A stretch of DNA of 64,000 bases. Source: Saprospiraceae bacterium (GTDB lineage Bacteria > Bacteroidota > Bacteroidia > Chitinophagales > Saprospiraceae). The translations under genes were made by a program, and so were the position numbers. The notes below the pieces were generated by a model. The model worked only from the letters and a program-made list of their open reading frames with translations. It was not told where the DNA came from and searched no databases. This document shows, one piece after another, positions 1,055 through 56,306 of the stretch. Location: the NCBI GenBank assembly GCA_019187225.1, contig JABAQQ010000008.1:16601-80600 (forward strand), written 5' to 3'. How positions within the stretch are numbered: position 1 is the first letter of the stretch; every line of letters begins with the position of its first letter.

Positions 1055-2137
1055 ATGATCGAACACAAACGCCGCCTGCGCATTGTCGCCAAAAAATGGG
1101 AAACCGCCGACACTGCCACGTTCATCCTCGAACCGGCAGACGGCCTGCTGTTCCATTACAAACCCGGCCAATATTTATCCCTGATCTTTGAAACCGTCAG
1201 CGGCGAAAAACGGCGGGCCTATTCTTTCAGCTCCTGTCCGGGAGTAGATCCGCTGCCGGCCATCACCGTCAAACGGGTACCGAACGGCGAGTTCTCCAAT
1301 TGGTTGCTTTCACATGCCGAACCCGGCGACCTGCTTACTGCCACAGATGCCAACGGTCGCTTTTTATTGCCCGAAATTCAACCGGACACCCTTTTTTATC
1401 TCGCTGCCGGTAGCGGCATTACGCCGGTGATAAGCCATTTAAGAAGTCTCTTTTTTGGCGACGGGGTGACTTCGAGTCACCCCGTCGCTAAACCACAGGT
1501 AGTGCTTTACTACGCCAACCGCGACAGCCGGAATACTATTTTTAAAGGGCAGATTGACCGTTGGATGGATGAATTTCCGGGCCGTTTCGAGTGCACGTAT
1601 TTTTTCAGCCGGGAAAAAAACGCCGCACATGCCCTTCACCGCCACCTGAACAACGAGTTGCTGGAACAACTGTTGCTTCGACATTTCGGCGGCAAGCTCA
1701 CGACCCGTGTCCGGCGCAACACCCAGTTCTATCTCTGCGCGCCGAAGACAATGATGCGTATGGCTGAGATGACCCTGCGCACGTTGGATTTCCCGGAAAA
1801 AAACATCCTTAAAGAAACCTTCGTGCCGGAGACCCGCCTTCCCGTCAGGGTAACGGATCGCTCCAAAACCCACGACATTGTCGCCATTGGGAAAAATGAA
1901 CGCATTGAATTTCAAACGTTTGAAGGAGAAACCATTCTGAATGCAGCGCTGCGCCAGGGTATCGCGTTGCCTTATACATGTAAAAGCGGAGTCTGTTTTA
2001 CCTGCTTGGCAAAATGTACGAAAGGCGAAGTGGAGGTGGTCTTTGTGGACGTTACCCGCCGCGAAGGGCCGGGGAATATGGTGAACACGTGTATCGGGTA
2101 TGCTGTGACGGAAAAGGTGGAATTGTGTTATGAGTAG
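1055..2137 (+). CDS. FAD/NAD(P)-binding oxidoreductase with C-terminal plant-type 2Fe-2S ferredoxin domain (PaaE/ferredoxin-reductase type)
   Basis: FAD motif RAYSFSS, NAD motif AAGSGITP, and C-terminal cysteine cluster CKSGVCFTCLAKC...C. Confidence 0.85.
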   Translation: MIEHKRRLRIVAKKWETADTATFILEPADGLLFHYKPGQYLSLIFETVSGEKRRAYSFSSCPGVDPLPAITVKRVPNGEFSNWLLSHAEPGDLLTATDANGRFLLPEIQPDTLFYLAAGSGITPVISHLRSLFFGDGVTSSHPVAKPQVVLYYANRDSRNTIFKGQIDRWMDEFPGRFECTYFFSREKNAAHALHRHLNNELLEQLLLRHFGGKLTTRVRRNTQFYLCAPKTMMRMAEMTLRTLDFPEKNILKETFVPETRLPVRVTDRSKTHDIVAIGKNERIEFQTFEGETILNAALRQGIALPYTCKSGVCFTCLAKCTKGEVEVVFVDVTRREGPGNMVNTCIGYAVTEKVELCYE

Positions 2138-2240
2138 CAGTGGCAGTGGCAGTGGCAGTGGCAGTAGCAGTGGCAGTGGGCAGTGGCAGTGGGCAGTAGC
2201 AGTGGCAGTGGCAGTAGCAGTAGCAGTGGGCAGTGGCAGT
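2136..2240. repeat. hexamer microsatellite (GCAGTG/GCAGTA, occasional GGCAGTG), about 17 units
   Basis: Runs from the reductase TAG to the stop of the four-helix-bundle gene. Confidence 0.95.
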
Positions 2241-2623
2241 TATTTCTTGGGCAAAAATTTCTCAGGATGATCAATCATACCGCCCAACATTCTGCCAACT
2301 TCCTCATAGCGTTTGATTAAGTCCCTGTGTTTCTCAATGGTAATATAACCGCAATCCTTTGCAAAATCCAGGTGCACCGTGGTTTCACTGGCTTCGCCGT
2401 CAGCATCGGTCATCTTGCTGCGAAAGTGGGCCGGAAAAATTCTTTTGCGATAACCTTCCCCAATATTTCCCGGCACAGCACGAGAAGAGCGGCGTATTTG
2501 GTCCGTGAGAGAATAGGTCTCTTCTTTGGGAAATGTTTTAGCCAAAATGAAAATTTCCATGGCTAGTTCATAAGAGAGTTGATAAACTTTCAGAGAACGA
2601 AAATCATTTGAAGCGTCTTTCAT
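2240..2623 (-). CDS. four-helix-bundle protein (TIGR02436 / 23S rRNA intervening-sequence protein / Avd-like family)
   Basis: 127 aa with typical family features: KVYQLSYELAMEIF, EETYSLTDQIRRSSRAVPGNIGEGY, ETTVHLDFAKDCGYI. Confidence 0.85.
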   Translation of the reverse strand: MKDASNDFRSLKVYQLSYELAMEIFILAKTFPKEETYSLTDQIRRSSRAVPGNIGEGYRKRIFPAHFRSKMTDADGEASETTVHLDFAKDCGYITIEKHRDLIKRYEEVGRMLGGMIDHPEKFLPKK

Positions 2624-2658
2624 ATTGATAAGGATTTAAATGAATAAATTTGTTTGTC

Positions 2659-2803
2659 CGCCACTGCCACTGCCACTGCCACTGCCACTGCCACTGCTAC
2701 TGCCACTGCTACTGCCACTGCTACTGCTACTGCTACTGCCACTGCTACTGCCACTGCCACTGCTACTGCTACTGCCACTGCCACTGCTACTGCCACTGCC
2801 ACT
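2659..2803. repeat. hexamer microsatellite (CCACTG/CTACTG), reverse complement of the 2136-2240 array
   Basis: About 24 units. The last three codons and the stop codon of the gldD ORF lie inside it. Confidence 0.95.
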
Positions 2804-3458
2804 TCAACGTCCCCACCAATCTATCTAAGTCCTTTTTCATAAAAGCGATCACCGGCGCGAGCGAATCGGGGCGGCTCTGCGTGTTGAAATACAAGGCGCC
2901 GCGCAGAAAATTCCGGGTGGAATCGGTCAGGAAAAACTGGTAAGACGAGGCCGCAGCACCTTCCACATTGAAGACAATGCCGTATACCTTATCCTCCGGG
3001 CGGTGCACGTGCAATTCGTCAATATAACTGGCTTTGATATTGTGTTTGTTCGTCATGGCAAATGCATCGGCCACCAGTTCGTCAAAGTCTTTGCGGCTGC
3101 GGATGGGGTTGTAACTGCAATAGATTTTGGCGTTCAGTTGCTTCACGTCGAGATTGAACCAGCATTCGTCCTTTGGCTTCTCATCAAAAAAACTCGTGTC
3201 CTTTTCGATCGTCGCGTAGGCAGGCATCTCGAAGGTGAAATTGCAGTACGACGCATCGAACGGCTTGTATGTTTTTTCCGGGTAAACGACCCGCGGATAG
3301 GCGCGGGGTTTCGGTACGGGGGTGTAGTCTTCGCAGGAAGAAAGTAGCAGTGGCAGTGGCAGTAGCAGTAGCAGTAGCAGTGGCAGTGGCAGTGGCAGTG
3401 GCAATATGGTTCGGAAGAGAGGTATGGAAAATCTGTAATTTGTATTAGTCAAAGTCAT
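2787..3458 (-). CDS. gldD: gliding motility lipoprotein GldD
   Basis: Lipobox LLSSC followed by PKPRAYPRVVYPEKTYKPFDASYCNFTFEMPAYA and the rest of a ~190-aa GldD-like body. Both ends of the ORF run into hexamer arrays. Confidence 0.7.
   Translation of the reverse strand: MTLTNTNYRFSIPLFRTILPLPLPLPLLLLLLLPLPLLLSSCEDYTPVPKPRAYPRVVYPEKTYKPFDASYCNFTFEMPAYATIEKDTSFFDEKPKDECWFNLDVKQLNAKIYCSYNPIRSRKDFDELVADAFAMTNKHNIKASYIDELHVHRPEDKVYGIVFNVEGAAASSYQFFLTDSTRNFLRGALYFNTQSRPDSLAPVIAFMKKDLDRLVGTLKWQWQ
3344..3402. repeat. hexamer microsatellite (GCAGTG/GCAGTA) inside the gldD 5-prime coding region
   Basis: On the minus strand it reads CTG CCA / CTG CTA and encodes LPLPLPLPLLLLLLLPLPLL. Confidence 0.95.
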
Positions 3459-3508
3459 GGTTATGGTATGTGATATGAAGCGTAAAGTTCGTTAAAAAAG
3501 GCAATCCA

Positions 3509-3646
3509 CCTACTGCCACTGCTACTGCCACTGCCACTGCTACTGCCACTGCTACTGCCACTGCCACTGCCACTGCCACTGCTACTGCCACTGCCACTGC
3601 TACTGCCCCTGCTACTGCCACTGCTACTGCCACTGCCACTGCCACT
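3509..3646. repeat. hexamer microsatellite (CCACTG/CTACTG), inverted relative to 3344-3402
   Basis: About 23 units. It starts at the TAG of the upstream endonuclease gene. Confidence 0.95.
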
Positions 3647-4610
3647 ATCTCCTGTTCCACTCTTCCACCCGCTCTTCGTAGCGCCGGCGGTCTACCGGCC
3701 AGGCATCCTTGTCCAGCGAGCCTTCGATCTCTTCGTCCAGACCTTTCAACAAATTCGGAAAAAAATCCAGGCCGGTCAGTTTTTCCACCTGGTCAATCGA
3801 AACGGCGTAGTCCATCACCGGCTTGGTACTCATTTCATTGGGCATCACGAATGCAATGGCTTTGTGTTGCTCCGGGGCATACAGCACTTTGTAGTAAGCG
3901 CCCGGCACAGTCACCTTGCTGAAGCCGATGGCGCCCAGGGGCGTCTGGGGCAGCACGGGACCGGTGACGACGTACAGGTTTTCAAATTTGCGCGCCCAGT
4001 CGCGGGTACATTCTTCGAGTTCGCGCCAGATGCCGCCGTTGAAGGGCCTGAGTTGTGGACTCATATTGCTCATCAGGAAAGTTTCGTCGATGGCGGTGGC
4101 GTCGAAAGCCATATCCGCTGCCGCACAGAGATGGCCTTTGTCGTAGCCGCTGCCGTTGTAATCGCGCGGCGTGGCGCTTTCAGTGCGCACGTCCGGGTCA
4201 GGACGGAAGGTATTGGGGCGTTCTGCCCATTTTTTGTTGAGGCGTTCGCGCGTCAGTTCGTAAGCCACCCATTCGGCCTGTTCGTGGTCTTCGCTGTAGG
4301 AAAGGACGAAGTAGGTATGGCGCACCACCTCGCCGGTAGTGGAAGCCGGTAGAATATTTTCTGGAACGTATGATTTCGGATCGCGGATTCCGGATGGCGG
4401 ATTGTTGTCTGCCGGCAGCTCCGTTTTAGGTTGATTATCCTGGGAATCGGGAGTTTTTTTCCCGGAAAACCGGTTGAAAGCCCAGAAAGCCAGGCTGGCC
4501 AACAGGGCAAAAAGTCCGGTTTTGAACAGGAAGCCTCCGGAGTCGGAAGAAGATTTGCGTCGCGCCATGGGTGAGAGTCGTGCGTTTTTTGAAAAATTTT
4601 GTTGGCGCAA
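3645..4610 (-). CDS. DNA/RNA non-specific endonuclease (Serratia NucA / EndoG family), membrane-anchored or secreted
   Basis: Catalytic region GSGYDKGHLCAAADM with downstream MSNMSPQ (metal Asn). N-terminal hydrophobic segment FLFKTGLFALLASLAFWAF. Confidence 0.85.
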   Translation of the reverse strand: MRQQNFSKNARLSPMARRKSSSDSGGFLFKTGLFALLASLAFWAFNRFSGKKTPDSQDNQPKTELPADNNPPSGIRDPKSYVPENILPASTTGEVVRHTYFVLSYSEDHEQAEWVAYELTRERLNKKWAERPNTFRPDPDVRTESATPRDYNGSGYDKGHLCAAADMAFDATAIDETFLMSNMSPQLRPFNGGIWRELEECTRDWARKFENLYVVTGPVLPQTPLGAIGFSKVTVPGAYYKVLYAPEQHKAIAFVMPNEMSTKPVMDYAVSIDQVEKLTGLDFFPNLLKGLDEEIEGSLDKDAWPVDRRRYEERVEEWNRR

Positions 4611-9159: not shown

Positions 9160-9186
9160 TGGATTGCGGATTGCGGATTGCGGAGG
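9160..9186. repeat. heptamer microsatellite (GGATTGC) x3-4
   Basis: Sequence tggattgcggattgcggattgcggagg lies directly next to the rhomboid start codon, between rhomboid and rnpA. Confidence 0.9.
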
Positions 9187-20463: not shown

Positions 20464-20524
20464 GTCCACCGTCAGGTACCGTCTACCTTCTACCATCCAC
20501 CGTCTACCATCCACCGTCTACCGT
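20464..20524. repeat. heptamer microsatellite (GTCCACC/GTCTACC), C-rich orientation
   Basis: gtccaccgtcaggtaccgtctaccttctaccatccaccgtctaccatccaccgtctaccgt ends 2 nt before the ATG at 20527. Confidence 0.9.
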
Positions 20525-22903: not shown

Positions 22904-22932
22904 GAATGATGAATGATGAATGATGAATGATG
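22904..22932. repeat. heptamer microsatellite (GAATGAT) x4
   Basis: gaatgatgaatgatgaatgatgaatgatg lies between the scpB stop and the DUF2480 start. Confidence 0.9.
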
Positions 22933-23557: not shown

Positions 23558-23620
23558 TGGGGATTTGGGATTTGGGATTGGGGATTTGGGATTGCGGATT
23601 GCGGATTTGGGATTGCGGAT
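23558..23620. repeat. heptamer microsatellite (GGATTTG/GGATTGG/GGATTGC) x9
   Basis: It lies in the spacer between the scpB start (23542) and the DUF4382 stop (23621) and fills all of it except the first 15 nt. Confidence 0.95.
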
Positions 23621-24130
23621 TTACTTCACTTTGATCACCGGCTTCAGAATATAGGCGCCGTTACCGGTTTCGACGATGGACTGCTCCGCGTCGAAGTCAA
23701 AAATGAGTGTGTTGATATCGAGGTTGAGGTTCTTGTCCACCTTGATCTTCAGGCCGGACTGTTGGGCGCTGGGCGTCGTGAGCGGGTACAACACGCTGTC
23801 TATCATGACGGTATTGCTGTCGCCGAGGACGAAGCGAACTTCCTTGAGCGCAACAGGCGCATTCAATGTGTCGGTAGCAACCAGGGTGTCTACTCCGTTT
23901 TGCAGTTGGAGCAGGTCATAAATGCCGGCAGCAGTGTTCAACGTAATCCATTGGGAGGTGTCATCGGAAGTTTTGATGCGGACTTCCCTGATGTCCACGT
24001 TCACCTGCTGGTAGTCACCGGGACCGTCGGTGAGTCGGATGTTGAGTGCGACGGCCTCTTTATCGTCCTTGTTGCAGGCAAAGAAAGCGATTAAACCGAG
24101 TGCGCATGTGATTAACAGTGTTTTTTTCAT
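23621..24130 (-). CDS. DUF4382 domain lipoprotein
   Basis: MKKTLLITCALGLIAFFACNKDD (lipobox), followed by LNIRLTDGPGDYQQVNVDIREVRIK. Confidence 0.55.
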   Translation of the reverse strand: MKKTLLITCALGLIAFFACNKDDKEAVALNIRLTDGPGDYQQVNVDIREVRIKTSDDTSQWITLNTAAGIYDLLQLQNGVDTLVATDTLNAPVALKEVRFVLGDSNTVMIDSVLYPLTTPSAQQSGLKIKVDKNLNLDINTLIFDFDAEQSIVETGNGAYILKPVIKVK

Positions 24131-34070: not shown

Positions 34071-34236
34071 AGACGTTGGACTATTGGACGTTGGACTATT
34101 GGACGTTGGACTATTGGACGTTGGACTATTGGACGTTGGATTTTTGGGCGTTGGACTATTGGACGTTGGATTTTTGGACGTTGGATTTTTGGACGTTGGA
34201 TTTTTGGACTATTGGACGTTGGACTATTGGACGTTG
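34071..34236. repeat. 7/8-nt microsatellite (ACGTTGG/ACTATTGG/ATTTTTGG), G/T-rich arm
   Basis: About 22 units, starting 7 nt from the GT87-like start codon. Confidence 0.95.
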
Positions 34237-34261
34237 AAAAGTGGAGGGTATTGACTTATCT

Positions 34262-34326
34262 AACGTCCAAAGTCGAATAGTCCAACGTCTAATAATCCAA
34301 CATCCAATAGTCCGATAATCCAATAT
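34262..34326. repeat. same family in reverse-complement orientation (CCAACGT/CCAATAGT)
   Basis: aacgtccaaagtcgaatagtccaacgtctaataatccaacatccaatagtccgataatccaatat ends at the DUF6438 stop codon. Confidence 0.9.
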
Positions 34327-35039
34327 CAATTCCGATCCTTAGCGGGCATATTGGTTTGCACTTCCACGACGCCGTCCATGTCTTTTAACACGTCAATCAG
34401 CGCCTTTTCTTCGATCTGTTTCGGATCGAAAGCCACGATCCAAATGTTTTCAGCGGAAATACGGCGCACGAGGCGGAGTTTGAACTCGGTGAACTGGTTG
34501 ACCCAGTTGCCTGCATTTACGTCGGGTTTGAGTTGGACGATGACTTCTTTCATGGTACCTGAAGGCGGCGAGTTTGGGTTGATGCCGCGTTTGAGTTGAA
34601 GACCGTGCGCTTCGGCGAGGTCTTTAAGCAGTCCTTCGAGTTCGAGCAAAGGCGCCGGCCGATCAATGGAGCCGCGCACCGTTTTGCTTTTTTCTCCTTC
34701 ATAGGCGATCAAAGTGGCAAACGGCGCATCCACGACATCGGTCTTGATCATATCGGGGTATTGCCAGAGATTCACCGATTGAATTTTTTCCTTCAACTGT
34801 TTGAGTTCCGTCCGGGTGAGGTAAAACGAGTCTTTGCCCACTTTTTCCACAAAACGTTCGCCGTTGTACCGCACAAAACCATTGTTCAACACCTCCAGTT
34901 TGAATACCGGACAGAAACCGAAACAGGGACCGGTTTCGAGGCTGACGAGGTTGGATGCGTCGCCGCCGGGCGATTTTTTTTTGCACTTTTCGGCGGAAAA
35001 AAACGCAAGAGCGGAGAGAAAGAACAAGAGGGTTTTCAT
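34326..35039 (-). CDS. DUF6438-like lipoprotein
   Basis: Signal and lipobox region FFSAEKC, then ETGPCFGFCPVFKLEVLNNGFVRYNGERF. Confidence 0.5.
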   Translation of the reverse strand: MKTLLFFLSALAFFSAEKCKKKSPGGDASNLVSLETGPCFGFCPVFKLEVLNNGFVRYNGERFVEKVGKDSFYLTRTELKQLKEKIQSVNLWQYPDMIKTDVVDAPFATLIAYEGEKSKTVRGSIDRPAPLLELEGLLKDLAEAHGLQLKRGINPNSPPSGTMKEVIVQLKPDVNAGNWVNQFTEFKLRLVRRISAENIWIVAFDPKQIEEKALIDVLKDMDGVVEVQTNMPAKDRN

Positions 35040-41410: not shown

Positions 41411-41551
41411 TAGACGTTGGATTTTTAGACGTTGGACTGTTGGACGTTGGACGTTGGACTATTGGATGTTGGACTGTTGGACTATTGGATGTTGGACTGT
41501 TGGACATTAGATGTTGGATGATGGGTGTTGGATAATTGGACGTTGGATTTT
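41411..41551. repeat. 7/8-nt microsatellite (ACGTTGG/ACTGTTGG/ATGTTGG), G/T-rich arm
   Basis: About 18 units, beginning 12 nt from the SH3 gene start codon. Confidence 0.95.
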
Positions 41552-41722
41552 AAGCATTCCATCAGGATTTTGGACGGCAAGTTCGTATCACATACGGGAG
41601 CGTTCAAAATAGTGTGCTATTCCGGATTACCTCAACACTGCATGACCGCTTCGCGGTCGGATTTACGGCGGTTAAAAAACAAAATGACACGCTTTTTGAC
41701 CACTCCCTCACATGCGCCCGCG

Positions 41723-41794
41723 AATCCAACAATCCAACGTCCAATAGTCCAACGTCCAGCGTCTAAAAATCCAACGTCCAACAGTCCAACGTCC
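41723..41794. repeat. same family in reverse-complement orientation
   Basis: aatccaacaatccaacgtccaatagtccaacgtccagcgtctaaaaatccaacgtccaacagtccaacgtcc ends 8 nt before the next stop codon. Confidence 0.9.
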
Positions 41795-42580: not shown

Positions 42581-44518
<1,938 letters not shown>

Positions 44519-48029: not shown

Positions 48030-48090
48030 ATGTAGGCGCTCCCGTCTTTTTCAATTAGTTTTGCCCCGATTTTTTAAAACAAATAATCAG

Positions 48091-48208
48091 ACATTGGACT
48101 TTTGACAATTGGACATTGGACTTTTGACAATTGGACATTGGACTTTTGACATTTGGACATTGGACTTTTGACATTTGGACATTGGACTTTTGACATTTGG
48201 ACATTGGA
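48091..48208. repeat. tandem 22-nt repeat (CATTGGACTTTTGACAWTTGGA) x5
   Basis: acattggacttttgacaattgg is repeated five times with A/T variation at one position. Confidence 0.9.
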
Positions 48209-48245
48209 AGTGTCTGTTTTTTTAACTGTAAGTACATTGACAATG

Positions 48246-48340
48246 GATTTTTGACATTGGACATTTGACCAAATGATTGGTTTTCAAGGTCAAACGTCCA
48301 AAGTCTAACGTCAATTTATTTTGTCCAATTACTTATATCT
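48246..48340. repeat. dispersed ~100-nt intergenic element, copy 2 (see 18309-18418)
   Basis: gatttttgacattggacatttgaccaaatgattggttttcaaggtcaaacgtccaaagtctaacgtcaatttattttgtccaattacttat. Confidence 0.8.
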
Positions 48341-50892: not shown

Positions 50893-52287
50893 ATGAAAGA
50901 ACTGAAAAAGTATTTTGAAGCCAACAAAGACCGCTTTCTCGACGAACTGCTCGAACTGCTGCGCATTCCTTCCGTGAGCGCCGACCCGAAATACAAGGGC
51001 GACGTGCGCCGCATGGCCGAAGCCACCGCTCAGCACCTCCGCAATGTGGGCGCCGACTCGGTGGAAATCTGCGAAACCGACGGCCACCCCATCGTTTATG
51101 CCGAAAAAATGGTGAACCCGAAAGCGCCGACCGTGCTCGTGTACGGCCACTACGACGTGCAGCCGCCGGATCCGCTCGACCTTTGGGACAGCCCACCGTT
51201 CGAGCCGGTGGTGAAAAAAACGAAATTGCACCCGCAGGGCGCCATTTTCGCCCGCGGCGCCTGCGACGACAAAGGACAGTTTTTCATACACGTCAAGGCT
51301 TTTGAAATGATGCTGAAAAACAACGTATTGCCCTGCAATGTAAAGTTTATGATAGAAGGCGAGGAAGAAGTCGGCTCGAAGAACTTAGAGAAATTCTGCA
51401 AGGACAACAAAAAGAAACTCGCCTGCAATGTGGTGCTGATCTCCGACACCAGCGTCATCGCCAACGACACGCCCAGCCTCACCGTCGGGTTGCGCGGTCT
51501 GTGCTACATGGAAGTGGAAGTGACGGGGCCGAATAAAGACCTGCACTCCGGCGTCTACGGCGGCGCAGTGGCCAATCCGGTCAATGTACTGTGCCAAATG
51601 ATCGCTTCTTTGCACGATTCGAAGCGACATGTCACCGTCAAAGGTTTTTACGACGACGTGAAAAAAGTGAGCGCCAAGGAGCGCAAAATGATGAACGAAG
51701 CGCCCTACGATGAAAAACAATACATGAAAGACCTCGGCGTGAACGAACTGATGGGCGAAAAAGGCTACACCACCATCGAACGCACCGGCATCCGCCCGAC
51801 GCTGGATGTGAACGGTATCTGGGGCGGTTACACCGGCGAAGGCGCCAAAACGGTATTGCCCTCCAAGGCATTTGCCAAGATCTCCATGCGCCTCGTGCCC
51901 GACCAGGACCCGAAGAAAATCGAAAAATTATTCCAGAAACACTTCGAGAGCCTCGCGCCCAAGTCGGTCAAAGTCAGGGTTACGGCCCATCACGGCGGCT
52001 GGCCGGTGGTGGTGCCCACCAACTCGGTGGAGTACAAAGCCTCCGAAAAAGCGATGGAACTGGCTTATGGCAAAAAGCCCCTGCCCCAGCGCGGCGGCGG
52101 CAGCATCCCGATCGTAGCGATGTTCGACCAGGTACTCGGCGCCAAATCCGTGCTCATGGGCTTCGGCCTCGATTCGGACGACATTCACTCGCCCAACGAG
52201 CATTATGGCCTGTTCAACTACTACAAAGGCATCGAGACGATTCCGTATTTCTACAAGTTCTATTCGGAAATGAAGAAGAAAAAATAA
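50893..52287 (+). CDS. M20 family dipeptidase/metallo-hydrolase
   Basis: ELLRIPSVSADP, VLVYGHYDVQP, ARGACDDKGQ, MIEGEEEVGS, HSPNEH. Confidence 0.85.
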   Translation: MKELKKYFEANKDRFLDELLELLRIPSVSADPKYKGDVRRMAEATAQHLRNVGADSVEICETDGHPIVYAEKMVNPKAPTVLVYGHYDVQPPDPLDLWDSPPFEPVVKKTKLHPQGAIFARGACDDKGQFFIHVKAFEMMLKNNVLPCNVKFMIEGEEEVGSKNLEKFCKDNKKKLACNVVLISDTSVIANDTPSLTVGLRGLCYMEVEVTGPNKDLHSGVYGGAVANPVNVLCQMIASLHDSKRHVTVKGFYDDVKKVSAKERKMMNEAPYDEKQYMKDLGVNELMGEKGYTTIERTGIRPTLDVNGIWGGYTGEGAKTVLPSKAFAKISMRLVPDQDPKKIEKLFQKHFESLAPKSVKVRVTAHHGGWPVVVPTNSVEYKASEKAMELAYGKKPLPQRGGGSIPIVAMFDQVLGAKSVLMGFGLDSDDIHSPNEHYGLFNYYKGIETIPYFYKFYSEMKKKK

Positions 52288-52342
52288 CCCGAAACCCGTT
52301 AACCCGAAACCCGGAACTCGTTAACCCGAAACCCGTTAACCT
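52286..52342. repeat. short tandem repeat (AACCCGAAACCCGTT-type)
   Basis: aacccgaaacccgttaacccgaaacccggaactcgttaacccgaaacccgttaacc lies directly after the stop codon. Confidence 0.85.
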
Positions 52343-53067: not shown

Positions 53068-53139
53068 CAGTTTGCAGTGGGCAGTGGCAGTTTGCAGTGG
53101 CAGTGGCAGTGGCAGTGGGCAGTTTGCAGTGGGCAGTAG
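53068..53139. repeat. hexamer/heptamer microsatellite (GCAGTG, GGGCAGT, TTTGCAGTG), G/T-rich arm
   Basis: Starts 4 nt after the FKBP stop. Confidence 0.95.
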
Positions 53140-53171
53140 TCAACGTGCAGCAACAATACATGAAGCGAGCT

Positions 53172-53308
53172 AACTGCCCGCTGCCCAGTGCAAACTGCCC
53201 ACTGCCACTGCAAACTGCCACTGCCCACTGCCACTGCCCACTGCCCACTGCCCACTGCCACTGCCCACTGCCCACTGCCACTGCAAATTGCCACTGCAAA
53301 CTGCTACT
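53172..53308. repeat. same family in reverse-complement orientation (CCACTG/CCCACTG/CAAACTG)
   Basis: Ends exactly at the ATG at 53309. Confidence 0.95.
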
Positions 53309-53956
53309 ATGAACAACCTCCACTACCGGGCCATCATAATGGTGTTGATCTATGTCGTTCTGCGTTTTTTCGGCGGGTCGTTCGGCAACTTCGTGTTGTA
53401 TCCGGTGACGTTACTGGTCACCTTTTTACACGAATTCGGCCACGCGCTGGGGGCGATCCTGACCGGCGGCGCCGTAAGCGGCATGCAGATCAATCCCGAC
53501 GGCAGCGGCTACACCGTTACGCAGGGCGGCAGCCCGGGGGTGGTGCTCATGGGCGGCTACCTCGGCAGCGCACTGCTGGGCAACATCCTGTTCCGCATCG
53601 GCGCCCGGCACCCTTCGTTTACCCGGGTGACGCTCCTGACCTTGTCGTGCCTCATGGTACTGGCTGGCGTGGTGTGGTTCGAGTCGTTCGGCAGCACTGC
53701 CCTCCTGCTGGGATTTGCCGCTTTGTTGTTCGTCGTCGCGTGCAATACCGATTGGGGTCAGGACGTGCTGATGTTCCTCGGCCTCGCTGCCGTGCTCTAC
53801 ATCATTCAGGATTTCAACGTGGGGCCGCAAAGCGACCTGGCGATGTACGAACAGGAAGTCGGGGTTTTCCCTTCACACGTATGGATGTATGTGTGGTTGG
53901 GTGTCGCAGGGGCGTTGTTTTATCTGAATATCAGGGAGATTTTCGGTAGACGGTAG
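53309..53956 (+). CDS. M50-like membrane metallopeptidase
   Basis: HExxH in a TM helix (TFLHEFGHALGAILTGG). Five or six TM segments. Confidence 0.7.
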   Translation: MNNLHYRAIIMVLIYVVLRFFGGSFGNFVLYPVTLLVTFLHEFGHALGAILTGGAVSGMQINPDGSGYTVTQGGSPGVVLMGGYLGSALLGNILFRIGARHPSFTRVTLLTLSCLMVLAGVVWFESFGSTALLLGFAALLFVVACNTDWGQDVLMFLGLAAVLYIIQDFNVGPQSDLAMYEQEVGVFPSHVWMYVWLGVAGALFYLNIREIFGRR

Positions 53957-53987
53957 ACGGTGGACGGTGGACGGTGGACGGTGGACG
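53945..53987. repeat. heptamer microsatellite (GGTAGAC/GGTGGAC) x6, G-rich arm
   Basis: It overlaps the last codons and the TAG of the M50-like gene. Confidence 0.95.
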
Positions 53988-54097
53988 AAATTTGAGCAAG
54001 AAAACTTATCTGATTGTCTGTCAATAATTTTTTTCAAAAATTGCATTTTTAACCTTCAGGAAACGCCAGACTAATTAACGCGAGCCCTACCCACCGT

Positions 54098-54210
54098 AGG
54101 AACAATGGGAACGCAGATGACGCGGATCAGGCGGATTTTCACAGATTTTCATCTGCTCGCAATCCGTTTTCATCCGCCCAATTCGCGTCATCTGCGTTCC
54201 CATTGTTCCT
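54098..54210. mobile_element. MITE-like palindromic element, family 1 (GATGACGCGGATCAGGCGGATTTTCACAGAT core), copy 1
   Basis: Arms aggaacaatgggaacgcagatgacgcg and cgcgtcatctgcgttcccattgttcct. The core is shared with 56371-56467. No coding capacity. Confidence 0.7.
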
Positions 54211-54259
54211 GCGAAAGGCAAGTCACAACCTGCATTGATTAAATTGGATTGGATGTGAT

Positions 54260-54330
54260 CTACCGTCCACCGTCCACCGTCCACCGTCTACCGTCCACCG
54301 TCCACCGTCCACCGTCCACCGTCCACCGTC
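54260..54330. repeat. heptamer microsatellite (GTCCACC/GTCTACC) x10, C-rich arm
   Basis: Ends exactly at the ATG at 54331. Confidence 0.95.
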
Positions 54331-55385: not shown

Positions 55386-56306
55386 ATGACAACCGCATCA
55401 GCTTACTCCTTTCTCATCCAACAACTCAGCCCCCGCTACGGCCCCGGCGAAGCGGCGGCCATCGCGCGTATTGTCCTGGAAGATGTGTTTGGGGCAGAGG
55501 GTAGAAGGTGGACGGTAGACGGTGGAGGGCAGACGGTAGACGGTTTATCCGCCGAAGCCCCCGTGAAGGCGGAGGGATGGACGGCGACAGAAGTGGAACA
55601 ATTGAAAAACATCACCGCCCGGCTGATAAGCGGCGAACCAGTGCAGTACGTGCTCGGCCAGGCGGATTTTTTCGGCCTGAAATTCAAAGTGAATCCCGCC
55701 GTGCTGATTCCCCGGCAGGAAACGGAAGAACTCGTGGCATGGATACTGGAGCATCTGAAAAACAGTAGGATAGAACACCCCGCCGTGCTCGACATCGGCT
55801 TAGGCAGCGGCTGTATCGGCCTCACGCTGAAGAAAAAATTCCCCGGACTGCAATTGTTCGGCCTGGAAAAAAGTCCCGCCGCGCTGGAAGTGGCAACAGA
55901 AAATGCCCGCCGCATCCTGGGCGAAGATGCGACGTTCCAGTTTGTCGAAGGCGATGTCTTCGACTACCGCGTTTGGGTTAAATTTCCTTTTTTAGACGTA
56001 GTCGCAAGCAACCCGCCCTACATTCCGAACGTACAGAAAAGTATCATGCCCGAACACGTGACGGCGCACGAACCCGCATTGGCCCTGTTCGTGGACGATG
56101 AGGACCCGCTGTCGTTCTATCGCGTGATCGCGGATTTTTCTTTACAAAAACTTAAACCCTGCGGCGCACTTTTTTTTGAATGCAACGAGTTCAACGCCGG
56201 CGAAGTCGCAGCATTGTTACAGGAAAAAGGATTTGTTCGGGTAGAATTGCGCAAAGACCTCGCGGGCGCAGAAAGAATGGTATGCGGGATGGTTGCGCGG
56301 CATTAA
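55386..56306 (+). CDS. prmC: peptide chain release factor N5-glutamine methyltransferase
   Basis: VLDIGLGSGCIG, VASNPPYI, EPALALF. It contains a repeat-derived insert, GRRWTVDGGGQTVDGLSAEAP. Confidence 0.85.
   Translation: MTTASAYSFLIQQLSPRYGPGEAAAIARIVLEDVFGAEGRRWTVDGGGQTVDGLSAEAPVKAEGWTATEVEQLKNITARLISGEPVQYVLGQADFFGLKFKVNPAVLIPRQETEELVAWILEHLKNSRIEHPAVLDIGLGSGCIGLTLKKKFPGLQLFGLEKSPAALEVATENARRILGEDATFQFVEGDVFDYRVWVKFPFLDVVASNPPYIPNVQKSIMPEHVTAHEPALALFVDDEDPLSFYRVIADFSLQKLKPCGALFFECNEFNAGEVAALLQEKGFVRVELRKDLAGAERMVCGMVARH
55499..55559. repeat. GGTGGAC/GGTAGAC repeat block plus GGTTTATCCGCCGAAGCC tail, inside prmC
   Basis: ggtagaaggtggacggtagacggtggagggcagacggtagacggtttatccgccgaagcc. Confidence 0.85.

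Follow-up and report, generated by a model that had tools for sequence, protein, structure and literature searches.

In a 64,000-nt stretch of a Saprospiraceae bacterium genome (assembly GCA_019187225.1, contig JABAQQ010000008.1, positions 16,601 to 80,600; hereafter the window), a gene for a 127-aa four-helix-bundle protein lies between two long, mutually complementary arrays of six-nucleotide tandem repeats, and gene and arrays together form a cassette that is inserted or deleted as a single unit. The same array-gene-array architecture, with the same polarity and with a complementarity of the arms that is specific to each cassette, is conserved around homologous genes across phyla. Our best reading is that these cassettes constitute a widespread class whose members immediately follow the stop codon of a host gene running in the same direction, lack a recognisable promoter and are gained or lost whole, and that in cargo and architecture they may be regarded as the counterpart, between protein-coding genes, of the intervening sequences (IVSs) of 23S rRNA that carry an open reading frame (ORF). 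The cargo, the stem and the short tandem repeats are known from rRNA IVSs; the position between protein-coding genes and the arms built of arrays set the cassette apart from them. The pattern extends across phyla and to a second gene family.

A small gene enclosed by complementary hexamer arrays

The cassette occupies positions 2133-2803 of the window, between the stop codons of gldD and of a convergent reductase gene and not in a 23S rRNA gene. Tandem Repeats Finder (TRF) detected a period-6 array at 2133-2240 (17.5 copies, 87% matches, unit AGTGGC) and the reverse-complement array at 2660-2803 (24 copies, 91% matches, unit GCCACT). Read on the sense strand of the bundle gene, which is the minus strand of the window, the order is (GCAGTR) x24, a 36-nt AT-rich leader, the gene, and about 17 copies of YACTGC. 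The parts of the cassette and its two neighbours are as follows.

2660-2803, minus strand: 5′ arm, purine-rich, (GCAGTG/GCAGTA) x24 on the sense strand (TRF, sequence, ORF list and empty-site alignment)
2787-2789, minus strand: TAG stop codon of gldD, supplied together with the last gldD codons (KWQWQ) by the distal end of the 5′ arm (sequence, ORF list)
2624-2659, minus strand: leader, 36 nt, AT-rich, between the 5′ arm and the ATG (sequence, promoter scans)
2240-2623, minus strand: four-helix-bundle gene, 127 aa, PF05635/TIGR02436 (S23p/Avd-like), with ATG at 2621-2623 and TAA at 2240-2242
2133-2240, minus strand: 3′ arm, pyrimidine-rich, (CACTGC/CTACTGC/CCCACTGC) x ~17 on the sense strand, starting at the stop codon of the bundle gene (TRF, RNA fold)
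2135-2137, plus strand: TAG stop codon of the convergent reductase gene, within the distal end of the 3′ arm (sequence)
2141-2794, minus strand: unit of insertion or deletion (arms, leader and gene), ~654 nt, approximate extent (MAFFT alignment of the window with loci L095 and L097)
1055-2137, plus strand: gene for a PaaE-like FAD/NAD/2Fe-2S reductase (ORF list and profile matches)
2787-3458, minus strand: gldD, gliding-motility lipoprotein gene (ORF list and profile matches)

An initial annotation of the window had described the bundle gene as bracketed by complementary hexamer arrays that touch the stop codons of all three genes. The contacts are as described: the TAG stops of both convergent neighbours (2135-2137 for the reductase, 2787-2789 for gldD) fall within the arrays, and the TAA of the bundle gene (2240-2242) abuts the array at 2133-2240. 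The bracketed layout is also real, but it is not confined to the bundle gene, since gldD itself is flanked by oppositely oriented arrays and pairs of arrays that enclose no cargo gene are likewise present in the window. When the 696-nt sense strand was folded as RNA, both arrays paired as one long stem enclosing a loop of ~420 nt, with a minimum free energy of -320.7 kcal/mol compared with -219 +/- 8 for shuffled sequences (z = -12).

Promoter scans of the leader revealed neither a sigma-70-like nor a Bacteroidetes-type (TAnnTTTG) promoter, and the cassette as a whole yielded neither a sigma-70-like promoter on the sense strand nor a terminator. We considered and rejected an intrinsic terminator: there is no short GC-rich hairpin with a U-tract at the cassette, where the loop is of ~420 nt. 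Rfam gave no family match at the cassette, and the 64-kb window yielded one tRNA only.

The bundle protein matches PF05635 (E 1.3e-31, 109.4 bits, cut-off 33.8), TIGR02436 (E 1.3e-29, 102.6 bits, cut-off 24) and the bAvd-like family PF22296 (E 3e-11). An AlphaFold model of the monomer, built with 24 homologues as input, predicts four long helices with a predicted local distance difference test (pLDDT) score of 93.6. Foldseek places this model closest to the pentameric Xcc0516 (2GSC; template modelling (TM) score 0.82-0.92) and BT_0352 (2RLD; 0.75-0.87), followed by the Avd protein of a Bordetella phage (4DWL; 0.75-0.88), and sequence-level matches to solved structures agree with this result. 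Consistent with the initial annotation, the protein is therefore related to the ORFs of 23S rRNA IVSs and to Avd. Avd binds nucleic acid, and, judging from Avd and Xcc0516, a four-helix bundle of 127 aa has no known catalytic activity. The TIGR02436 family is large (more than 8,000 related protein clusters in one search), and the bundle protein had no match in the defence-system library of PADLOC.

Although it is related to Avd, the protein scores below the cut-off of the Avd equivalog model NF033474 (36.3 bits against 80). No reverse transcriptase family was found among the called genes within 10 kb on either side, the repeats found near the gene are tandem arrays and not a template/variable repeat pair, and its only phage matches are true Avd proteins of diversity-generating retroelements (DGRs), at 33% identity.

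The cassette is present or absent as a whole

Two loci from relatives, L095 and L097, share the gldD/reductase junction of the window and encode GldD proteins that are 91% and 83% identical, respectively, to that of the window. Their convergent stop codons are separated by 3 and 18 nt, and neither locus has a bundle gene or arrays. In a MAFFT alignment of the three sequences, homology extends to ...AAATGGCAGT (...TGGCAGT) on the gldD side and restarts at TACTCATAA on the reductase side, leaving ~654 nt, comprising the arms, the leader and the gene, that are present in the window alone. Because L095 and L097 lack both the gene and the arrays, these ~654 nt behave as a single unit of insertion or deletion. 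A third syntenic locus, L001, contains both, with Endonuclease_NS, gldD and the bundle gene in the same order and the end of the contig (6464) within the 3′ array. In these syntenic relatives the gene and the arrays are either both absent or both present, as befits the self-contained cassette that the initial annotation had proposed.

Even without a cassette, the native end of gldD (TGGCAGTAA in the empty sites) is identical to one repeat unit. At L095, both genes of the empty site end in TAA, whereas in the filled site both end in TAG within the arrays. Alignment of the filled site with the empty ones shows no target-site duplication at either boundary, although a very short one could be masked by the repeats, and there is no transposase or recombinase in or beside the cassette.

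Homologues that are 82-85% identical to the window's protein occupy three gene contexts: the gldD site of L001, a position between a glycosyltransferase gene and a gene for a type IX secretion system (T9SS) plug protein in L005, and a position between DUF4197 and PrsW genes in L006. All three carry GCAGT-type arrays upstream and ACTGC-type arrays downstream. The layout is the same around homologues of 71-74% identity in a Lewinellaceae genome, a Calditrichaceae metagenome-assembled genome (MAG) and a 7.9-Mb genome, whose units differ yet stay complementary (for example GGGCAG/CCCTGC). This recurrence around homologues elsewhere indicates that the arrangement in the window is not due to chance.

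Metagenomes of sludge and bioreactors contain the locus of the window. Depth was equal across the unique stretches of the reductase gene, the bundle gene and gldD in four DNA metagenomes, from which we conclude that the cassette is fixed in this population. Joints reported in these metagenomes were dismissed as repeat artefacts.

Architecture, polarity and arm complementarity are conserved across phyla

About 85 homologous loci, representing at least 12 phyla, were examined in all. The survey set consisted of 80 loci, one genome per species, picked by protein similarity alone (53-74% identical; protein-pattern scan), and covered Bacteroidota, Acidobacteriota, Chloroflexota, Calditrichota, Ignavibacteriota, Planctomycetota, Verrucomicrobiota, Nitrospinota, Nitrospirota, Desulfobacterota, Lentisphaerota and Firmicutes. 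We used the local alignment of the 250 nt upstream of a gene with the reverse complement of the 250 nt downstream as a score for the complementarity of its flanks. The median of this flank score was 35, compared with 18 for 203 other genes of the same loci (Mann-Whitney p = 9e-18), and 47 of 71 loci lay above the 95th percentile of these control genes. Tandem arrays (period 5-9, at least 4 copies) occurred at 1.02 per kb within 350 nt of the gene and at 0.084 per kb elsewhere in the loci, a difference of ~12-fold.

The two sides of the gene are not equivalent. GCAGT was enriched 20-fold upstream and ACTGC 15-fold downstream, the GC skew upstream was positive in 76 of 81 loci, and the upstream flank was purine-rich in 74 of 81. 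Most arrays have a heptamer unit (40 of 54 upstream, 33 of 45 downstream), such that the hexamer of the window is a minority form, albeit the second commonest period. The upstream array ends a median of 35 nt before the ATG and the downstream array begins a median of 11.5 nt after the stop codon of the bundle gene, with a median arm length of ~32 nt and a maximum of 316 nt. The units themselves vary by lineage and include GGCAGT, GGCAGA, TCAGTN, GACAGT, GGGAGA and GTGAGT, among others.

Arms pair preferentially within their own cassette, with a mean score of 38.5 for own arms and 21.6 for arms of other loci (permutation p <= 1e-4). Four loci carry a second, distant TIGR02436 paralog within 3 kb, and each paralog has its own unit. 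Own-with-own arm scores exceeded the cross scores in three of these four loci, and in L066 did so for the paralog only. Thus, since paralogs in one genome have different units and their arms match within the cassette, the arms belong to the cassette and not to the host genome. Among more distant homologues on cyanobacterial plasmids (40-50% identical), some of them predicted to be conjugative, three of four copies have GGGGAGCA-type arrays together with complementary ones. Flanking inverted arrays accompany most of the surveyed homologues, four distant paralogs and three of the four plasmid copies, as the cassette envisaged in the initial annotation would lead one to expect.

One locus departs from this layout: in L079 (2857-3900), from a Terriglobia MAG, the bundle gene and its 3′ arm are ~1 kb apart, and the ORF of ~240 aa in between may be a passenger gene within the cassette.

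Cassettes follow a stop codon in sense to upstream transcription

The upstream neighbour of the cassette is co-directional with it in 64 of 67 loci, compared with a same-strand rate of 0.68 for control genes (p = 2e-8). Where the two neighbours are both co-directional with each other, the cassette lies in sense 54 times and in antisense once (p = 3e-15). A median distance of 4 nt separates the stop codon of the upstream ORF from the array, and in 20 of 45 cases this codon is inside the array or at most 3 nt away from it; TAG is that stop codon in 22 of 45 cases. The cassette thus abuts a stop codon in sense to upstream transcription. A Bacteroidetes -7 motif was found in 2 of 81 leaders only.

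A second cargo family shares the packaging

Strong inverted repeats also flanked two of the control ORFs (L078 4141-4518 and L081 4241-4618), which proved to encode GxxExxY proteins (TIGR04256, E 2e-44). We therefore analysed a set of 80 GxxExxY loci from a metagenome scan (L104-L183). The median flank score in this set was again 35, and scores of at least 30 were obtained for 43 of 63 loci, compared with 6 of 203 control genes. The upstream units are of the CACAGAG, CGCAAAG or CACAAGG type, with complements downstream, the 5′ flank is purine-rich in 63 of 69 loci, and sense orientation outnumbers antisense by 40 to 7. The GxxExxY protein has a predicted nuclease-like fold with weak matches to Cas4. 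That an unrelated family has the same packaging argues that the packaging is not tied to the four-helix-bundle fold.

Relation to known systems

The IVS of Coxiella 23S rRNA consists of a 28-bp stem of terminal inverted repeats that is cut by RNase III and an S23p ORF; just upstream of this ORF are 2-3 tandem GACAGAT heptamers, variable among strains, the first of which coincides with the 5′ RNase III cut site (PMC4990558). A GACAGAT unit is also present at one survey locus, L062 (Pirellulales). The cassettes resemble the rRNA IVSs of Leptospira, Coxiella, Brucella and Xanthomonas in having PF05635 cargo, an ORF enclosed by stem-forming terminal inverted repeats, and short tandem repeats upstream of the ORF (a hexamer in the window cassette, a heptamer in Coxiella). 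Versions without an ORF exist among the IVSs and are comparable to the gene-less array pairs described below, and an orientation always in sense to host transcription can be stated for both. However, rRNA IVSs are located in helix 25 or 45 of 23S rRNA, whereas the window cassette lies between protein-coding genes; their stem is of ~28 bp, whereas the arms of the window cassette are long tandem arrays (100-320 nt); excision by RNase III is known for the IVSs and is presumed for the cassette; and the packaging of the cassette is shared by a second cargo family. Lying outside 23S rRNA, the cassette is not a strict member of the rRNA intervening sequences.

Other systems share individual features with the cassette. 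It has the four-helix-bundle fold and superfamily of DGR Avd but lacks a reverse transcriptase, template/variable repeats and an Avd-level score. In REPIN-RAYT systems, a single gene likewise has a short repeat on either side in inverted orientation, and this repeat is also found in intergenic regions as inverted doublets without a gene, as are the arrays of the window at 3343-3403/3512-3646 and 53074-53137/53173-53308. Their gene, however, encodes an HUH/Y1 (IS200/IS605-like) transposase, whereas the cassette has PF05635 only, and their repeats are single palindromes of ~25 nt in place of tandem 6-7-nt arrays. Integron cassettes are also promoter-less small ORFs, in sense downstream of host transcription, with a boundary repeat that forms a hairpin, but they depend on an integrase, attI and attC, with a single 3′ attC; the window cassette has none of these, has two arms, and belongs to a class with dispersed insertion sites. 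Insertion sequences and miniature inverted-repeat transposable elements have a transposase, or terminal inverted repeats with a target-site duplication, whereas the cassette has no transposase and no visible duplication.

The arrays themselves recall repeats that have been described without a gene. In Beggiatoaceae, Cyanobacteria and Bacteroidetes, MacGregor (2015) catalogued intergenic arrays of the TAACTGA heptamer that adjoin start codons, and suggested that they had spread horizontally and are bound by a factor yet to be found (PMC4679880); in a study of Nostoc, the partner of heptamer repeats was likewise unidentified (bioRxiv 10.1101/2022.06.06.494920). The short tandemly repeated repetitive (STRR) heptamers of cyanobacteria, TAACTGA repeats and long simple sequence repeats (LSSR) are, like the arrays here, intergenic 6-7-nt tandem units that abut start or stop codons, have an ACTG/CAGT core and occur in the same phyla (PMC4679880). 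They differ in being reported as direct repeats without a gene or a complementary arm, whereas the cassette arrays are paired around a specific small gene. Full-text searches, with most subscription journals outside their coverage, found no description of inverted arrays flanking PF05635 or GxxExxY genes. Genes annotated 23S_rRNA_IVP have been reported within cas operons (PMC3936711) and in rRNA insertions of candidate phyla radiation (CPR) bacteria, both of which fit a promoter-less cassette landing in transcribed regions.

Several consequences follow. The shared packaging (complementary arrays, insertion at stop codons, sense orientation and no promoter) gives TIGR02436 and TIGR04256 a testable context and ties these small proteins to rRNA intervening sequences. 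For the heptamer arrays found between genes in Cyanobacteria, Bacteroidota and Beggiatoaceae, the cassettes offer a candidate source as well as a candidate binding partner, and they may account for the 23S_rRNA_IVP genes within cas operons. They also break short-read assemblies and supply their neighbours with stop codons and even segments of signal peptides.

Possible mechanisms

The explanation that we favour, and to which we would give an even chance of being correct, is that the cassette is IVS-like: lacking a promoter, it would be transcribed together with its host gene, looped out by pairing of its arms and cut in the stem by RNase III. Read-through from the upstream gene would transcribe the cassette, the arms of which could then pair into a long double-stranded RNA stem. 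The cassette would thereby be looped out of the host transcript, which would draw the ends of the flanking cistrons close to each other and insulate them. By analogy with the rRNA intervening sequences, the stem would be a substrate for RNase III, and cleavage might release or stabilise a small mRNA. Arm length would be altered quickly by replication slippage. In favour of this explanation are the anatomy and the predicted stem, the recurrence of the layout across contexts and phyla, the better pairing of own arms, the empty sites, the sense orientation next to a stop codon, the leaders in which promoter motifs were almost never seen, the Coxiella precedent and a metatranscriptome contig (2199-2499) that contains the 3′ part of the gene and 41 nt of the 3′ arm.

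A number of observations weigh against this explanation. Among the mismatches between arms, G:U-compatible changes are not in excess on the sense strand (108 sense, 100 antisense), nor are they in GxxExxY cassettes (99 and 114), in a test that is weakened by ambiguity of the repeat register; the arms thus give no strand-specific sign of selection for an RNA helix. The core sequence GCAGT recurs from phylum to phylum, which a requirement for pairing alone does not predict. About one third of the loci have weak or undetected arm pairing, some of them with frameshifted genes, and a few have directly oriented arms (L031, L073, L083, L091 and L103). The RNA data for the locus are limited to assembled metatranscriptome contigs, which break in the arrays, and array k-mers in such data stem from many organisms; a single contig was informative. 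Finally, the Flavobacteriaceae cassette is found at one site, ffh-folD, across seven lineages, in most of which the arms, although short and mutually different, are still complementary. Such residence means that the cassette is not necessarily mobile on short time scales, and that it can stay in place over long periods as well as be gained or lost recently.

Another way to view the arms is as elements that act in DNA or as binding sites for the cargo protein, neither of which is mutually exclusive with the IVS-like explanation. In the former case, the arms would be terminal inverted repeats composed of many short protein-binding sites, similar to the subterminal repeats of some transposons, and would be read by a trans-acting recombinase or nuclease or by the cargo protein; transposition, or recombination between arrays, would then move the cassette, with the RNA stem as an incidental feature. 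We consider this rather unlikely, even though it would accommodate the presence or absence of the whole unit between close relatives, the 82-85% identical cargo in three unrelated gene contexts of Saprospiraceae-like genomes, the copies on cyanobacterial plasmids (some predicted conjugative), and a protein identity of 55-75% across phyla, which suggests horizontal transfer. The strand symmetry of the wobble test is what a DNA-level constraint would give, the empty site ends in TGGCAGT, one repeat unit, which suggests microhomology at the junction, and GxxExxY (TIGR04256) provides a cargo with a predicted nuclease-like fold and weak Cas4 matches. Yet there is no transposase or recombinase in or next to the cassette and no visible target-site duplication, the 127-aa four-helix bundle has no catalytic activity known to us, the residence at one site in Flavobacteriaceae is long, and a sense bias of 54:1 is not expected of transposition alone. 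In the latter case, the cargo protein, as a pentameric ring, would bind one unit per subunit on single-stranded RNA or DNA in the manner of TRAP and so regulate its own cassette. Gene-less arrays would then be further targets, as in REPIN-RAYT systems, and the proteins would be the missing partners of the STRR and TAACTGA heptamer arrays. The relatives 2GSC, 2RLD and 4DWL are pentameric rings, and Avd is a nucleic-acid binder. The unit follows the cargo subfamily rather than the host (it is GCAGT-type across phyla and differs between distant paralogs of the same genome), and the polarity is conserved, with the purine-rich arm 5′ in 74 of 81 loci. Moreover, gene-less GCAGTG-family arrays are present in the window (3343-3646, 42821-42883 and 53074-53308), array k-mers are 100-175x deeper than single-copy flanks in four metagenomes, and intergenic heptamer arrays exist for which no binding partner is known (PMC4679880; bioRxiv 10.1101/2022.06.06.494920). 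Nevertheless, we judge this unlikely: the unrelated GxxExxY family shares the packaging, which makes the architecture independent of the bundle fold, the 64 kb contain many array families (GGGATTG, GACGTTGGACTATTG and GGTGGAC among them) but one bundle gene, and binding alone leaves the second, complementary arm unexplained.

Two other possibilities fare worse. If the genome filled its intergenic regions with inverted arrays, for instance as terminators, the bundle gene might merely happen to lie between two of them, and the window does contain at least eight gene-less inverted pairs of several unit families as well as a gldD that also sits between arrays. Such a coincidence is very improbable, as it is contradicted by the flank-score survey, the array density, the permutation of own-arm pairing and the empty-site alignment: the association holds in 80 other species (1.0 array per kb beside the gene and 0.08 away from it) and is not seen for control genes, the arrays and the gene are absent together from syntenic relatives, and no hairpin-plus-U-tract terminator exists at the cassette. 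That the gene is the Avd of a DGR would agree with the related fold and family (PF22296, E 3e-11; 4DWL, TM 0.75-0.88). We regard this role as almost certainly wrong, since it is contradicted by the equivalog score (36 bits against a cut-off of 80) and by the lack of a reverse transcriptase within 10 kb on either side; in addition, the phage proteins matched are true Avd proteins only, at 33% identity.

A broader reading, which we put forward as possible but doubtful, is that such cassettes serve bacteria in general as vehicles for small genes, a role that has so far gone unrecognised. They would be the protein-coding intervening sequences of operons, with rRNA IVSs as a subset, their cargo proteins would recognise their own unit, and the cassettes would be the master copies of the gene-less 6-7-nt inverted arrays (STRR, TAACTGA) of Cyanobacteria, Bacteroidota and Beggiatoaceae.

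Array pairs without a cargo gene

The window holds at least eight inverted array pairs without a cargo gene, belonging to several unit families. Those of the cassette's own unit family, a heptamer pair and the further arrays are located as follows.

3343-3403: GCAGTG-family array without a cargo gene, G-type on the plus strand (TRF, ORF translation)
3512-3646: complementary partner of 3343-3403, C-type on the plus strand, abutting the stop codon of the Endonuclease_NS gene (TRF, inverted repeats, sequence)
53074-53137 and 53173-53308: gene-less inverted pair of the GCAGTG/GGCAGT unit family with a loop of ~35 nt (TRF, sequence)
42821-42883: solo array, (ACTGCC) x10.5 (TRF)
909-964 and 1020-1049: heptamer pair, (GGGATTG)n and (CAATCCG)n, filling the yidD-reductase intergenic region
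34072-34336, 41416-41794, 48090-48312 and 53944-54330: further intergenic array regions
4372-4404, 9161-9184, 20477-20524, 22904-22932, 23560-23622, 52286-52335 and 55496-55544: further solo arrays

Six-frame hidden Markov model searches and tblastn found nothing significant in the way of a degenerate bundle or GxxExxY gene inside the gene-less pairs of the window. The pair 3343-3403/3512-3646 encloses a 108-nt spacer that contains the start of gldD. On the minus strand, the CTGCCA/CTGCTA repeats of the array at 3343-3403 encode LPLPLPLLLLLLLPLPLLL (LPLPLL...), the hydrophobic core of the signal peptide of the GldD lipoprotein, ahead of the lipobox cysteine. This pair is conserved in L001 (5120-5180 and 5300-5375) and absent from L095, L097 and L099, whose GldD signal peptides are ordinary. 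An Rfam match to isrG at 3299-3624, on both strands and below threshold (50 bits, the gathering score being 100), most likely reflects a long hairpin of any kind. In the more distant L099 (GldD 76% identical), the convergent gldD/scpA junction at 4100-4230 has a gene-less inverted pair of AATGTGGTC-type units and no cassette.

The sequence of the window contains at least five further unit families (GACGTTGGACTATTG, GACATTGGACTTTTG, CGGTGGA/ACCGTCC, GGGATTG and AACCCGA), often as inverted pairs with loops of 30-275 nt. In the heptamer pair between yidD and the reductase gene, the (GGGATTG)n arm starts at the TAG of yidD and the (CAATCCG)n arm ends 5 nt before the ATG of the reductase, with no cargo gene between them. 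At 53988-54261, and especially at 54097-54211, the (CGGTGGA)n/(ACCGTCC)n pair encloses a 275-nt non-coding insert with a near-perfect hairpin (ggaacaatgggaacgcagatgacgcgg...), for which Rfam gave sub-threshold, hairpin-type matches to models of miRNA precursors. A further intergenic inverted repeat (60482-60547/60585-60650), which is not made of tandem units, has arms of 66 nt that are 89% complementary and a loop of 37 nt.

In the four DNA metagenomes, array 31-mers were 100-175x deeper than the single-copy flanks. The arms are a frequent end point of short-read contigs, as in L001 and in many homologue or GldD contigs of 0.5-2 kb, and cassettes and their neighbours are consequently fragmented in a systematic way in metagenome assemblies.

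Upstream of yidD, at 35-643, the window begins with an eRF1-like ORF (baeRF_family3, E 1e-32), which in a longer contig is a 361-aa gene beside a response regulator gene and a ParE-type toxin gene.

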